Origin: Planctomycetaceae bacterium
Lineage (GTDB): Bacteria; Planctomycetota; UBA8742; UBA2392; JABWBM01
Length of the DNA: 43,956 bases
Reading direction: 5' to 3'
Assembly (NCBI GenBank): GCA_013360495.1
Contig: JABWBM010000029.1
Coordinates: 1-43,956 of the forward strand
Shown here: piece by piece, positions 7,184-12,506 of the stretch
Layout of the letters: every line of letters begins with the position of its first letter
Position numbering within the stretch: position 1 is the first letter of the stretch
Position numbers and translations under genes: made by a program
Notes under the pieces: generated by a model
Seen by the model: only the letters and a program-made list of their open reading frames with translations
Told to the model about the DNA's origin: nothing
Database searches by the model: none

Positions 7184-7260
7184 CGGGCCGTAGCGCAGCC
7201 TGGTAGCGCACTTCCTTGGGGTGGAAGGGGTCGGGAGTTCAAATCTCCCCGGCCCGACCA
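7184..7260 (+). tRNA. tRNA-Pro (anticodon GGG)
   Basis: 77 nt; acceptor stem CGGGCCG/CGGCCCG, D-arm AGCCTGGTAGC, anticodon arm CTTCC-TT GGG GT-GGAAG, T-loop GTTCAAATC, encoded CCA. Confidence 0.96.
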
Positions 7261-7500: not shown

Positions 7501-7995
7501 ATGGGGAAGCACCTCGGCAGCTATATCGAACAGGAGCGCATCCGGCAGGGCCTGCGGCGGTCGGAGCTGGCCACCCATGCCGGGTGGCGAAGCACCAAGG
7601 GCTGCCGGAAAATTACGGCGCTTGAGCGCGGCGAGGAAGTTGACGAGGCGGCGCTGCGCCGCCTCGTCCCAGTACTGAACCTCAACCCTAGTGTCATCGA
7701 AATGCTCTTGGAGCGCGACCGGCAAGACTTACTCGCGGAAATCAAGCGGCAGGAAGTCGGGTTTCAACCCTACATGCTCATTCGGCTATTGGCTGCCGTA
7801 TTCATGCGCGTCGAGATTCCCGTTGACGTAGAGCGCGACGAATTCCATTTGCGCGAGTTCGCCCGCGCTCACGCGGAGCACATCAGGCGGCAGGTCTGCC
7901 TAGCCGTCGGCCCCGTGCGCTGTGTCTGGATCAGCCCCGACGACCCGAATGAATGGGTGGAGGATGCCACGCCGCCGCGTCCGTTGTTTCGATAG
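7501..7995 (+). CDS. XRE-type helix-turn-helix protein
   Basis: LGSYIEQERIRQGLRRSELATHAG...KITALERG resembles an HTH_3 N-terminus; C-terminal region unrecognised. Confidence 0.7.
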   Translation: MGKHLGSYIEQERIRQGLRRSELATHAGWRSTKGCRKITALERGEEVDEAALRRLVPVLNLNPSVIEMLLERDRQDLLAEIKRQEVGFQPYMLIRLLAAVFMRVEIPVDVERDEFHLREFARAHAEHIRRQVCLAVGPVRCVWISPDDPNEWVEDATPPRPLFR

Positions 7996-8056
7996 GCCGA
8001 GTCACCACGATCAACCGGTTGCCCGCTCTGGAAGCCTGACAGACAATGCGGGCAAC

Positions 8057-8875
8057 ATGCTTCGAGCGCGACTGAAAAGAAAAGCAGAGCAATTGGAACT
8101 TCCGGGTCATCTCGGTCCCGGTGAAATTGCGAAACTTGTCAATAGCTCAAGAACGGCTGTTTCGGCGGCCATTCATCGCCATGCTTTGGATTATTACATC
8201 GGCCAAAAACCGGAGAAAGACGGTCGTGTTCGCATCAACCTGAAAGACTTTTCTTTCGCGCTGCGAAGAGCCAACCCTACTTTCGATTCTCAGGTTTATG
8301 CACTACAGGAAGAATTGAACATCAAGGCAGATGCTCTGGAGACGACACGTCAACGGATTGTGAGAGCAGCAGAGCGTTGTGGCGCTGTCGAACCATTCAC
8401 TGTCACACAATGCGCTGACATTCTGAATATTTCAAGAAAGCTGCTCACCAAGACTCTCAAGGCCCATCAACCCCGATTGGTTACATTTGATCTTTGTCCG
8501 GTACTAACGCGAGGCCCAATGCCGATGGTCTGGAGCGACGAGCTTGCATTGTTCACCTGCCGGACGAATCAACCGCTACCGAAGTCCAAGGTGAGCGATT
8601 CGACAATCAGATGTCTCGATTGGATCAAGGGCACCCTTGTTTGTTGTGCGTCCCGGCACGGCATTCGAGAGCCATACACTATTTACGACGTTATGCGCAT
8701 CCTCAAAATCAGCAAGCAAAGAGTAACTCGCCCGCTCTCGAACGGCGAGGCACCCTTGATCGCATTCGACGTTGGCACCGGCAGTCGCAGGATATGGCGT
8801 ATCTGGAACGACGATCTCTCTTGGCACCTTATGCTCGGAAATCGTGACCGATGGAGGGATGTCGATGGACATTGA
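8057..8875 (+). CDS. Protein with three tandem excisionase/MerR-like HTH domains
   Basis: Repeats LGPGEIAKLVNSSRTAV, EPFTVTQCADILNISRKLL, EPYTIYDVMRILKISKQRV. Start placed at ATG 8057. Confidence 0.65.
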   Translation: MLRARLKRKAEQLELPGHLGPGEIAKLVNSSRTAVSAAIHRHALDYYIGQKPEKDGRVRINLKDFSFALRRANPTFDSQVYALQEELNIKADALETTRQRIVRAAERCGAVEPFTVTQCADILNISRKLLTKTLKAHQPRLVTFDLCPVLTRGPMPMVWSDELALFTCRTNQPLPKSKVSDSTIRCLDWIKGTLVCCASRHGIREPYTIYDVMRILKISKQRVTRPLSNGEAPLIAFDVGTGSRRIWRIWNDDLSWHLMLGNRDRWRDVDGH

Positions 8876-9638
8876 ACTGCGCGAAGGTGATGTCATCGAG
8901 GACGTGCTGCGGTCACGAATTGAGCGGCTGAAGCTGAAAGAGCCGTTCACGACCGCGCAGGTCGGATCAATCCTCAGTATCCGTCGAGAAAGAGTTAATA
9001 ATCTCCTATGGGGAAATCCTCCACGATTGCAAGCATCACGAGTCCCGACAGGGAGAAGCCAGTCTATCCGCTGCACAATTACGTTTCACGACTTGTTGAA
9101 GTACATGGAGGAAAACGATCCGCGTATTGCCATAAGAGAACGTCAGTATCGTGTCTCTGAAGCTATCGGTGAAGAACGTCTTGAAGCTGAGTATGCGCGA
9201 CTAATGAAACTTACCAATGACCTCGGCTTTCATGAACCACTCACCGTACAGGAAGTCGCCAAACTTTTCGGTAAATCTTTACCGCGTGTGTATGAGGCGG
9301 CGCGTTCCTATGGACCGACTCGTTTGCTCCCTTGGTTTGACCCTACACCCGCGATTTTTGGGAAGACGGTTTACAGATTCTGGTTACGGGGTGTCGCATT
9401 TTACGCTTGCATTGCCCATCTGGACGAACGCGAACGACACGAAGCCAGTCGAAGAAAGAAGTTTGATCTTGCATGGCATAAACAAGAGCTTTCAAAGAGA
9501 GCAGCCGAACTCAGCTTCAGGGAGCCATATACTGTGTCTGAGGCAGCTACCATTCTTCGCGTCAGTCATACCATGATGCACAGAGCGGTAAGCCTTGGCT
9601 TCGATTGCCATCTCCGCTCCCACTGCTTCGAAGCGTAG
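8865..9638 (+). CDS. Paralogous protein with three tandem excisionase/MerR-like HTH domains (last one possibly truncated)
   Basis: Repeats EPFTTAQVGSILSIRRERV, EPLTVQEVAKLFGKSLPRV, EPYTVSEAATILRVSHTMM; GGAGGG upstream of ATG 8865. Confidence 0.65.
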   Translation: MDIELREGDVIEDVLRSRIERLKLKEPFTTAQVGSILSIRRERVNNLLWGNPPRLQASRVPTGRSQSIRCTITFHDLLKYMEENDPRIAIRERQYRVSEAIGEERLEAEYARLMKLTNDLGFHEPLTVQEVAKLFGKSLPRVYEAARSYGPTRLLPWFDPTPAIFGKTVYRFWLRGVAFYACIAHLDERERHEASRRKKFDLAWHKQELSKRAAELSFREPYTVSEAATILRVSHTMMHRAVSLGFDCHLRSHCFEA

Positions 9639-10282: not shown

Positions 10283-10358
10283 GTAGCGTCATGCCTATGG
10301 CATGACGTCTTTGAGCCTGCGGGGAAGAGAAGACGTCACGGCATAGCCGTGACGCTAC
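10283..10358. repeat. REPIN-like element, family B (GTAGCGTCA...TGACGCTAC)
   Basis: Two inverted GTAG-initiated REP units flanking a spacer; related copies at 11333, 12425, 13165 and 33411. Confidence 0.75.
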
Positions 10359-10389: not shown

Positions 10390-10416
10390 AAGTGGTATAT
10401 CAACAAGGATCAACCA

Positions 10417-11331
10417 ATGACTCATCGTCACTGAATCGTCCGGGGGGCGCTGCTCCTCATCGCCGTGGCGGGTCTCGCCGCGAATCTCTCCGCCCATGAA
10501 ACGCTCTTCGGGCGCGGGCCGCGCACCATGTGGAAGGGCGGCTTCGAACTGGAAATGGAGACCATGTTCGAGCAATCGAAGCGTTTCTACGAGGGCGACA
10601 ACACCGTCGCCAACCCTGACAACATGCGCATGTATGAAGCCACGTGGTCACCAGGGATAACCTACGGTGTGACGCGAGACTTCGCCGTCAAAGCGGAATT
10701 TCCCTTCATGTACGGCGTGATGACGGGCGAGTCCATGGGCCGCCACTCTCTCCTGAGCATCGGCAACTGGGAGGTGGGCGCCGCCTATCGCATCGATCCT
10801 TTGATCTTCGGTGGACCGCTGGTGTTCGAGGGAGGGAGCTGCCAGCTTCGTCTCTTTGGAAAGGCCGAACTGCCGACGGCTCCGGAACGGGAGAACGGCA
10901 TCAGCTTCGGCGAGGAGACCTTCACCTTCCTCGGTGGCGGCGCCATCGCCATTGGCACGGCGCGCCATTACTTCTGGGGCGAGGTGTCGGGCGACATCTC
11001 AACGGAAAAGGACGGCACGGGCATGGGTCCCGCGCTGCAGTCCCACGCCGCCTATGCCTGGCGCATCCAGGAGCTCAAGGACTACCGCGAGCTTGACATC
11101 ATCCTGCTCTTTGAACTGGACGTAGAGGCGCGCTCGAAGGGAACGATGAACGGCGATGACGACCCGGACAGCGGGCATTTCACCACGTACCTCGGGAGCG
11201 GTGTTCAGGTCAACTTCACCAACCTGATCTCGCTCAAGACCGGCTACAACGTTCCGCTCTACCGGCGCTACAACGGCGTGCAGTTGGCGGATGATGGCAC
11301 GTTCATGCTGATGTTCAGTTATTTGTTCTAG
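10417..11331 (+). CDS. Outer-membrane beta-barrel 'transporter' (MetA-pathway/PF13557-like), Met-rich, with an in-frame TGA at codon 6
   Basis: AAGGA RBS then ATG 10417: MTHRH-TGA-IVRGALLLIAVAGLAANLSA|HE... gives a signal peptide only if TGA 10432-10434 is read through. Body has GITYGVT, K.ELPT, DPDSG...YLGSGVQ, VPLYRRYNGVQL and a terminal Phe (YLF). ORF track starts at GTG 10465. Confidence 0.75.
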
Positions 11332-11332
11332 G

Positions 11333-11405
11333 CGTAGCGTCACGCGCCCTCGCGTGACGAACCAATCAAAAGATACAACGTCACGCGAGGGCGCGTGACG
11401 CTACG
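11333..11405. repeat. REPIN-like element, family B
   Basis: cgtagcgtcacgcgccctcgcgtgacg ... cgtcacgcgagggcgcgtgacgctacg is a perfect inverted pair. Confidence 0.8.
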
Positions 11406-11423: not shown

Positions 11424-11813
11424 ATGCAACGCTTTCAACATACGATTCTGATGGCCATGTTCATCGCCGGCTTCGCCGCGTGCATGAATATCTCCGTCGC
11501 GAACATCGATCCGCCCGCGGATCACAAACCCGTTACGAACGTGCCCACCGATCGAGACGCGATATACAAACTCAAAGTTAAGGGCGTGGACTGAGGCGAG
11601 TGAGCGACGGGCCTGATACAGGCTTTTGAATCCCTGGATGGGGTTCGCGAAGTTCGAACGGATATCACCGAGGCGATGGTCTATCTCCGCACGGAACCGG
11701 GAACGGTGCTTGTGTGGGAGGACGTCGCGACAGCCGCCGTGTCCTACGGTTATGGTCTCGCGGCGCTGGAGCTGGCCGACATCCCGTGGGAAAAGCTCTC
11801 GGGCGGCGAGTGA
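11424..11813 (+). CDS. Lipoprotein with heavy-metal-associated (HMA, CopZ/MerP-like) domain carrying a UxxU motif; candidate double-selenocysteine protein
   Basis: Manual translation: MQRFQHTILMAMFIAGFAAC (lipobox) MNISVANIDPPADHKPVTNVPTDRDAIYKLKVKGVD-TGA-GE-TGA-ATGLIQAFESLDGVREVRTDITEAMVYLRTEPGTVLVWEDVATAAVSYGYGLAALELADIPWEKLSGGE*. The TGAs at 11592 and 11601 (codons 57 and 60) occupy both Cys positions of the HMA G[M/V]xCxxC motif. Absent from the ORF track. Confidence 0.85.
11611..11652 (+). promoter_or_regulatory. Two tandem bacterial SECIS-like stem-loops
   Basis: GCCT-GATAC-AGGC (11611-11623; loop 20 nt after the first TGA) and GAATCCC-TGGAT-GGGGTTC (11628-11646, extendable to 11623-11652; loop 31 nt after the second TGA). 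Each has G at loop position 1 or 2. Confidence 0.6.
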
Positions 11814-11876: not shown

Positions 11877-12233
11877 ATGACCGACCGGGTGCTCAACCTC
11901 GTGATCTTTGCCGGCGTACTCTGCGTCGTAGCAGGCGGAGCTGCTGCCGTCGGTTCGCTTTTCGGCCCGGCGCGCCGTGGCAAGACCAAAGAATCGCCCT
12001 ACGAGTGCGGTTCCCCAATCCTGAACGAAACGCGCAAGAAGTTCGACGTGCGTTTCTTCATGCTGGCGATGATCTTCATCCTCTTCGACATCGAAACCGT
12101 ACTCTTGATCCCCTACGCCGTTCAGTACGAACGCTTCGGCGTGGCCGGCCTCGTAATCGCCGGCATCTTCTTCCTCGGCCTCGTGGAATCGCTCATCTAT
12201 GCCTGGAAGAAGGGCGCGCTGGACTGGAAATAG
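11877..12233 (+). CDS. nuoA: NADH-quinone oxidoreductase subunit A (stand-alone)
   Basis: K.SPYECG, FDVRFFMLAMIFILFDIE, YAWKKGALDW. Confidence 0.92.
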   Translation: MTDRVLNLVIFAGVLCVVAGGAAAVGSLFGPARRGKTKESPYECGSPILNETRKKFDVRFFMLAMIFILFDIETVLLIPYAVQYERFGVAGLVIAGIFFLGLVESLIYAWKKGALDWK

Positions 12234-12424: not shown

Positions 12425-12506
12425 GTAGCGTCACGCGCCCTCGCGTGACGGACTATGGAAAATGTAGCTTGTAGAGAAGACGCCATGCGAGGGCGCATGG
12501 CGCTAC
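12425..12506. repeat. REPIN-like element, family B
   Basis: gtagcgtcacgcgccctcgcgtgacg ... cgccatgcgagggcgcatggcgctac. Confidence 0.75.

Follow-up and report, generated by a model that had tools for sequence, protein, structure and literature searches.

Here we describe the 5' end of a gene for a predicted outer-membrane beta-barrel protein, located in a stretch of 43,956 nucleotides (nt) from a Planctomycetaceae bacterium (contig JABWBM010000029.1 of assembly GCA_013360495.1, positions 1 to 43,956 of the forward strand). This whole stretch is referred to as the window. The gene carries a TGA codon in frame inside the part that codes for its signal peptide. As read in the sequence, an ATG at 10417, the TGA at 10432-10434 and the barrel codons up to a TAG at 11329-11331 lie in a single open frame, and the precursor is ordered as M-T-H-R-H, the TGA, IVRGALLLIAVAGLAANLSA and then HETLFG..., where the mature barrel starts. 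An earlier preliminary description of this DNA had named the ATG, the word AAGGA as its ribosome-binding site, the in-frame TGA and the barrel frame, and all of these are present in the sequence. The parts of the gene are:

10405..10409, forward strand: Shine-Dalgarno-like word AAGGA, 7 nt 5' of the ATG, read in the sequence
10417..10419, forward strand: ATG, the proposed start codon of the barrel precursor, from the sequence and from comparison with orthologs
10432..10434, forward strand: in-frame TGA, codon 6 of the precursor and proposed site of selenocysteine recoding, read in the sequence and conserved in orthologs
10417..10494, forward strand: region coding for the signal peptide, 26 codons, with predicted cleavage after Ala26 (..NLSA/HE..), by inspection
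10495..11331, forward strand: mature 12-stranded outer-membrane barrel of 278 residues, plus the TAG stop, from AlphaFold2 and fold comparison

The barrel protein and its signal peptide

AlphaFold2 models the mature protein as a barrel of 12 strands, with a mean predicted local distance difference test (pLDDT) score of 87 and a predicted template modelling score (pTM) of 0.82. According to Foldseek the nearest solved folds are the COG4313 channel 4rl8 (template modelling (TM) score 0.77, E 6e-11) and FapF, the TM scores being 0.70-0.77. The C-terminus, ...SYLF, has an aromatic last residue. At the sequence level the barrel is weakly matched by the Pfam family PF13505 (OMP_b-brl), at 16.3 bits for a cut-off of 28.7, and no NCBIfam family matches it.

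By inspection, the codons before the mature barrel have the layout of a signal peptide, as in Sec-exported precursors that type I signal peptidase cleaves: a basic n-region (MTHRH-U-IVR, where U stands at the TGA), an h-region (GALLLIAVAGLAA) and a cleavage site of the AxA type (NLSA|H). The same succession of n-region, h-region and AxA-like end is found, by inspection and by alignment with relatives, in all 23 TGA-bearing sequences of the comparison given below. All 21 orthologs have a histidine as the first mature residue. We also read ten distant relatives (P0011-P0026) from a library of 1.8 billion proteins. These have ordinary signal peptides: the histidine follows a full-length, unbroken presequence in all ten, and this presequence has an AxA-like end in eight, the exceptions being P0017 and P0023. 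Further, the mature N-terminus His-(E/N)-x-x-F-G-x-x-P-x-T (window 10495-10540) is kept even in these distant relatives. It is speculative, but the free N-terminal histidine may be a metal ligand.

With translation table 11 the open reading frame (ORF) of the barrel opens only at GTG 10465. This start gives a presequence of ten residues, and no Shine-Dalgarno-like word could be seen by eye 5' of it. Because the downstream starts leave at most ten presequence residues or none, while the relatives all have a presequence, read-through of the TGA is required for a working signal peptide, a conclusion that is supported by the sequence comparison. The preliminary description had likewise held that only read-through yields a full signal peptide and that GTG 10465 has neither a ribosome-binding site nor a usable signal, and both statements agree with what we find.

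The loss of the signal peptide is visible in the annotation. An identical protein in the library (P0005) is called from an internal methionine and begins MWKGG; it lacks its signal peptide, and its annotation is corrected here. The called N-termini of three other library proteins (P0007, P0008 and P0009) likewise begin at an internal methionine or within the h-region, and that of the close relative P0006 looks truncated too. Judging from these cases, public gene calls of the barrel family are presumably truncated by the same TGA.

The letters at 10432-10434, which the preliminary description had considered worth verifying, are confirmed by other data: no variant is listed at the TGA site in contigs of four runs from four studies, two of them DNA (X10, X15) and two RNA-library (X13, X17). 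The contigs from the RNA libraries span the 5' region, the barrel and the gene downstream of it, which codes for a protein with a UxxU motif (U, selenocysteine); none of them crosses the repeat between both genes, and carry-over of DNA is possible, so that neither transcription nor an operon is claimed here for the window's own copy.

The TGA and its hairpins in related genes

The ortholog set comprises 21 species-level genomes including the own genome of the window, all metagenome-assembled genomes of Planctomycetota from one order, with 34-46% identity to the window barrel. Within the same order, 20 of the 23 genomes of a sister family have a barrel ortholog; the 16 other genomes of the phylum that were searched have none. 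In a wider sample of 401 genomes of the phylum the close family occurs in 19: the own genome, 17 genomes of family f2 and one distant hit. Two distant matches (L032, L099) and a locus without a 5' end (L059) were left out of the ortholog counts, while L060 is included in the TGA count and excluded from the tree, for which it is too short.

An in-frame TGA within the signal peptide is found in 18 of the 21 genome orthologs, the window's included, and in five of the seven metagenome contigs with a visible 5' end. Four of these five contigs (L054, L057, L058 and L060) share the presequences of L013, L020, L019 and L022, respectively; for L057 and L058 the identity with L020 and L019 extends to the barrel tree. 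The exact position of the codon differs. TGA is the seventh codon in 15 of the 16 sequences of the 'HN' clade, where the mature protein starts with HNTLFG, the sixth in the window, and the twelfth or thirteenth in part of the 'HE' clade (HETMFG).

All 18 genomes with an internal stop have TGA there. At their ends, the 21 genes of the set carry TAG in 11 cases, TAA in three and TGA in seven. A plain stop could drift among TAG, TAA and TGA, yet the internal codon is always TGA. The surrounding sequence also has the appearance of a translated region. In all 23 TGA-bearing sequences an ATG or GTG stands 5, 6, 11 or 12 codons before the TGA, and in 18 of them a Shine-Dalgarno-like word is found 4-16 nt 5' of this upstream start. 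From the start to the TGA the orthologs read as a basic n-region, and changes occur mostly at third positions, as in translated sequence. The base 3' of the TGA is C in 16 of the 23 sequences, G in five and A in two, and never U.

In a maximum-likelihood tree of 27 rows, those that lack TGA branch from within TGA-bearing groups (L029; L014 and L053 beside L055), and the tree therefore implies at least two losses of TGA. In the HN clade TGA has been kept over a summed branch length of about 3.3 amino-acid changes per site, with one loss. The five rows that have no TGA (L012, L014, L029, L053 and L056) show V, S, G, I or a gap at the site; Cys is found in none of them.

Because the TGA, the start and the n-region persist across orthologs, a random nonsense mutation, a pseudogene or a plain stop before a later start is excluded on comparative grounds. 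The preliminary description had regarded a nonsense mutation or a sequencing error as an equally live explanation, and had named conservation of TGA among orthologs as a way to decide; the conservation in 18 of 21 genomes, the invariable TGA and the agreement of the four runs refute that explanation. A heuristic scan of the own genome for the succession 'start, short n-region, TGA, h-region' gave 19 candidates, of which the barrel ranked first and was, by our reading of the candidates, the sole convincing one; the device would therefore be specific to the barrel gene and no genome-wide habit.

A few other readings of the TGA were considered and rejected. A +1 frameshift of the prfB type does not apply, since the reading frame stays unchanged across the TGA. 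A reassigned genetic code does not apply either, since TGA terminates seven of the 21 barrel genes as well as the UxxU gene. Finally, L-L-G-U in L018 and L026 could be read as a lipobox, and was rejected since just six residues would stand before it.

In the window, the following hairpins can be drawn downstream of the UGA. They are the candidates for a selenocysteine insertion sequence (SECIS); distances are counted from the U of the UGA:

10442..10458, forward strand: hairpin 1, stem of 7 base pairs (bp) including two G-U pairs, loop GCU at +17; SECIS candidate by position
10464..10482, forward strand: hairpin 2, 7-bp stem, loop GGUCU at +39; SECIS candidate of the preliminary description
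10460..10471, forward strand: weak alternative that overlaps hairpin 2, with a 4-bp stem and the loop CGUG at +32; found with the 4-bp setting

Hairpins 1 and 2 fold as the preliminary description had stated. Hairpin 2, which it favoured, is the most stable local hairpin (-11.2 kcal/mol); this part of the claim is not supported in that form, since hairpin 2 is at chance level and its GGUCU loop, at +39, lies beyond the loops of the orthologs (+20 to +24) and of the selenoprotein genes inspected in the lineage (+15 to +34). The preliminary description had likened this loop to that of the E. coli fdhF SECIS (AGGUCU).

The orthologs give a more regular picture. Among 19 TGA-bearing orthologs the stem has at least five consecutive pairs in 15, four pairs in three and three pairs in one. 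In both clades the loop, CGUG(N) or GU(N)(N), begins at +20 to +24, counted from the U of the UGA. This distance is maintained although the clades differ in the spacing of the UGA from the mature start (45-51 nt in one, 30 nt in the other). As the loop distance holds while the position of the UGA shifts, the hairpin appears to track the UGA and not a position in the protein. In L028 a 9-bp stem is retained with other letters and other amino acids (z -2.57). Hairpins of the CGUG type are found in 12 of 20 barrel segments, while their background is 0.15-0.28 per kilobase. No Rfam family was found at the TGA site. A conserved hairpin in orthologs, the other comparison suggested in the preliminary description, is thus present as a GU-loop hairpin at a fixed distance in both clades; its stability is not clearly above chance.

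The UxxU neighbour and selenocysteine in the lineage

The features around the barrel gene are:

11424..11813, forward strand: gene with a lipoprotein-like signal and an HMA domain, with U57-G-E-U60; TGA codons at 11592-11594 and 11601-11603, stop TGA at 11811-11813
11610..11624, forward strand: hairpin 3' of the UxxU codons with a 6-bp stem; its loop AUA is at +24 relative to the first UGA and at +15 relative to the second
10283..10358, no strand given: inverted pair of palindromes resembling repetitive extragenic palindromic (REP) elements, upstream of the barrel gene; read in the sequence, with depth spikes or contig breaks in other runs
11334..11404, no strand given: inverted pair of REP-like palindromes between the barrel and UxxU genes; read in the sequence, with depth spikes or contig breaks as for the upstream pair

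The pairing of barrel and UxxU gene, already pointed out in the preliminary description, is a constant feature of the family: a gene with the motif G-x-D-U-G-x-U lies 3' of the barrel in all 21 genome loci and in all six metagenome loci that reach that far. In the window the hairpin of the UxxU gene is weak (-7.1 kcal/mol, p = 0.58), whereas in relatives this place is taken by a 7-bp GC stem. Against the NCBIfam family NF041115 the UxxU neighbour scores 20.5 bits, where the cut-off is 95. The next gene is nuoA, at 11877.

In relatives, a MerR-family regulator with a C-x7-C tail stands directly upstream of the barrel on the same strand, and it is absent from that place in the window's own copy. 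Several relatives have a second downstream HMA lipoprotein with CxxC, UxxC or UxxU. These genes can be seen for example in L046 (1968-2381 and 3825-4175), and in L012, L013, L029 and L031.

The lineage clearly uses selenocysteine, as judged from its genes. SelA and SelB are present in the own genome. Eight of the ten matches to the AhpC/TSA family in this genome (G000) carry one in-frame TGA at the active-site position, in UxxC-type motifs (contigs C166, C32 with two sites, C34, C151, C133, C207 and C214), and the organism is therefore selenoprotein-rich. In these peroxiredoxin-like genes the hairpin loops lie +22 to +33 after the UGA, and five of the eight start with CGUG; in three of them the loop CGUG is at +32, as in the window's hairpin at 10460-10471. 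Further, a tRNA-Sec (69-73 bits) and a TGA-containing SelD were found in all five relatives tested, out of 20 barrel-bearing ones. The SelD genes of these five (G003, G005, G007, G010 and G018; loci L101-L105) have their in-frame TGA in the context G-U-G-C-K, and in three of them a perfect-stem hairpin is found, which is small and has the loop GGU or GUC at +30. The hairpins of these accepted selenoprotein types (UxxU genes, peroxiredoxin-like genes and SelD) resemble those of the barrel orthologs.

Elsewhere in the window, single REP-like copies are found at 12425 and 33411; the core words of these palindromes occur 199-221 times in the genome, on both strands, and Rfam gives weak microRNA-type matches only. 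A tRNA-Pro (GGG) is located at 7184-7260. The overlapping ORFs at 7922-8875 and 8772-9638 contain repeated helix-turn-helix segments (HTH_17, Sigma70_r4-like), and they may be a single gene read in two frames.

A possible selenium gate and its alternatives

The proposal that we consider best in agreement with these observations, with a probability of about one half, is that selenocysteine (Sec) is inserted into a signal peptide that is later cleaved off, and that its codon serves as a selenium gate. The steps of this proposal are not equally firm. On sequence grounds the recoding of the UGA is well supported; that it is decoded as selenocysteine is likely; and that selenium gates the synthesis of the barrel is plausible. 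SelB and Sec-tRNA(Sec) would decode the sixth codon, UGA, guided by a hairpin in the region coding for the signal peptide. If Sec-tRNA(Sec) is available the ribosome would pass the UGA and the barrel would be made, and if selenium is short release factor 2 would stop translation after five residues. The gate would couple the barrel to the supply of its neighbour, the selenium-dependent UxxU metal-binding lipoprotein, the barrel gene being the first of a putative unit whose other products would each need two selenocysteines. Where both genes form one operon, termination may also reduce downstream expression by polarity. In its full form, which we hold tentatively and at slightly less than even odds, the Sec codon in a discarded presequence would be a dedicated selenium sensor, and both the channel and, via polarity, the UxxU selenoproteins of the operon would depend on Sec-tRNA(Sec).

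No chemistry is expected of the residue in the mature barrel, because it would be lost with the signal peptide and because the orthologs without TGA have hydrophobic or small residues. Since the residue would be cleaved off, since its position varies among clades and since Cys never substitutes for it, a regulatory role of the codon itself would be the most economical reading. The preliminary description had argued in the same direction, from the cleavage, and the five rows without TGA, none with Cys, are in line with it.

A number of observations weigh against such a gate. The three genome orthologs and two metagenome rows without TGA retain the UxxU neighbour, so the gate would be dispensable, and Cys stands at the TGA site in no homolog, unlike the usual pattern of selenoproteins. 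In the own assembly (92% complete, 256 contigs) neither a tRNA-Sec nor a SelD above cut-off was found; probably both are unassembled. The window copy does not follow the +20 to +24 rule of the orthologs and none of its three candidate hairpins stands out. The 66 nt after its UGA fold at -22.7 kcal/mol, the mean of shuffled sequences being -25.0 kcal/mol (z +0.77), and 157 of 200 shuffles fold at least as well; in synonymous recoding the hairpin is not above chance (p = 0.76). In most orthologs, too, stability is not above chance. In the 17 (of 23) TGA-bearing sequences that were shuffled, z ranges from -2.57 to +0.99, and in only one of the 17 at most five of 200 shuffles fold as well. Synonymous recoding gives p 0.04-0.85 over 20 barrel sequences. 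RNAalifold, applied to a codon-anchored alignment of 15 orthologs, gives no consensus structure, the registers of the hairpins differing slightly, and the conservation of the loop codons is barely above that of other conserved columns. The CGUG motif was defined after the barrel hairpins had been seen, and genome-wide a CGUG-loop hairpin after an open-frame TGA shows a modest excess (20/4186, compared with 6/2884 after TAG or TAA). Finally, the ortholog sequences are kin, and the hairpin perhaps represents only two or three independent cases.

The stability tests have little power. For the UxxU hairpins, used as a control, synonymous recoding gives p 0.013-0.58 (11 of 27 genes). Because the same test is weak on these hairpins, we treat the stability of the barrel hairpins as uninformative and not as counter-evidence.

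The invariable UGA, the chance-level stability of the hairpin in most sequences and the lack of any Cys homolog would also be accounted for by a leaky stop. Helped by a weak termination context, a near-cognate tRNA (for Trp, Cys or Arg) would occasionally read through the UGA, and barrel output would be fixed at a low level relative to downstream genes, independently of selenium; the hairpin would be incidental or would slow the ribosome. UGA followed by C is the weakest context for release factor 2 in E. coli; this is the context in 16 of the 23 sequences, and none of the 23 has U in that place. However, a weak ribosome-binding site would be a cheaper route to the same result, Trp is found at the site in none of the rows without TGA, and the distance between hairpin and UGA is kept when the UGA sits elsewhere in the signal peptide. 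Moreover, the feature is confined to a gene that is always paired with a UxxU selenoprotein, in genomes rich in selenoproteins, and we consider a leaky stop rather doubtful. A selenocysteine with a chemical job before or after cleavage is less probable still. It could sense or bind a soft metal (Cu, Ag or Hg) at the cytoplasmic face during export, form a transient Se-S link with a partner, or leave a selenium-bearing fragment of the signal peptide that has a role of its own. The locus is indeed metal-related: in relatives the barrel gene is preceded by the MerR-family regulator and followed by one or two HMA lipoprotein genes. In two orthologs (L024 and L025) a Cys adjoins the TGA. But the TGA shifts between codons 6-7 and 12-13 among clades, the residues flanking it are not conserved, its replacements are V, S, G, I or a gap and never Cys, and it has been lost within TGA-bearing clades while the rest of the locus was retained.

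The TGA could also be a tolerated passenger that arose near a chance SECIS-like GC hairpin, with partial insertion of selenocysteine being sufficient and without a function of its own. Such hairpins form readily from GC-rich codons for Ala, Leu, Pro and Gly, the synonymous recodings averaging -5 to -11 kcal/mol, and the gene was kept in spite of at least two losses of the TGA. Against this stands the persistence of the codon in one clade over about 3.3 amino-acid changes per site with a single loss, on a tree along which terminal stops and nearby third positions have varied freely. A costly neutral stop should soon be replaced through any of seven single-base changes to sense codons, and the family has the TGA at two different positions; a passenger is therefore quite improbable in our judgement. 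The explanation that we would be most surprised to see confirmed is an artefact, a broken gene or a later start (GTG 10465 or ATG 10529) with a fortuitous upstream frame. The gene callers did pick a downstream start (P0005, MWKGG), but the contigs of four runs from four studies list no variant letter at the TGA, and 18 of 21 orthologs carry it. In addition, the later starts leave at most ten presequence residues or none, in a family whose relatives all have a presequence, and GTG 10465 has no Shine-Dalgarno-like word by eye.

Selenocysteine is known as an active-site residue, and the methods by which selenoproteins are found depend on homologs that pair Cys with Sec. Such methods would miss a conserved UGA that stands in a discarded portion of the protein. 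If the selenium gate is real, selenocysteine would here be used for regulation and not for chemistry, in a translational gate that one order of Planctomycetota has long retained. The recoding machinery would then be usable as a nutrient-sensing switch, giving a simple way to tie partner proteins to the supply of selenium. In the open-access full text that was searched, including passages of 10.1101/2022.07.06.499078 and PMC13188914, we found no account of a signal peptide that contains a selenocysteine or a UGA; the search did not extend to subscription papers or supplementary files.

NF041115, the 'UxxU metal-binding (seleno)protein' of NCBIfam, is listed as a predicted selenoprotein family in the review PMC13188914. 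The UxxU neighbour has the HMA fold and the UxxU motif in common with this family. It differs in scoring far below the cut-off and in having a lipoprotein signal and a long linker, and it is a relative, not a member. The barrel shares with the COG4313 channel (4rl8) and FapF (5o65, 5o67) its 12 strands and a length of about 270-290 residues (Foldseek E 6e-11 to 1e-08). Unlike them, at 11-15% sequence identity, it has an invariant N-terminal histidine and a fixed UxxU lipoprotein partner.

As for the gate itself, two known regulatory systems are comparable, and the barrel gene is a member of neither. In trp-type leader-peptide attenuation the first codons of an operon report the supply of one aminoacyl-tRNA and decide on downstream expression. 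The early codons of the barrel gene would similarly sense the supply of a charged tRNA. However, the sensing codon lies within the presequence of the structural gene and the outcome would be that one polypeptide is either ended or continued; at the barrel gene no alternative folds of a terminator and an antiterminator were seen. In prfB, the gene for release factor 2, an early in-frame UGA together with a +1 frameshift senses the translation apparatus. The barrel gene shares with it a conserved early in-frame UGA as the putative sensor, but its frame is unchanged and the sensed quantity would be the supply of Sec-tRNA.

A third comparison is with selenoprotein genes read by SelB and SECIS, such as that of formate dehydrogenase H or, in this lineage, those of the UxxU HMA proteins, the peroxiredoxin-like proteins and SelD. 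As in these genes, the orthologs retain the UGA as TGA, a hairpin whose apical loop holds G/U, here a putative SECIS, lies in the coding region about 15-35 nt downstream, and SelA, SelB, SelD and tRNA-Sec are found in the lineage. The barrel gene differs in that its UGA belongs to a signal peptide that is cleaved off, rather than to an active site, that the position of the codon shifts between clades, that its orthologs without TGA have no Cys, and that the mature barrel would hold no selenium. The mechanism would thus be ordinary SelB/SECIS recoding; this gene would stand out by having its UGA in a presequence that is cleaved, by having no Cys homologs and by its implied use in regulation.

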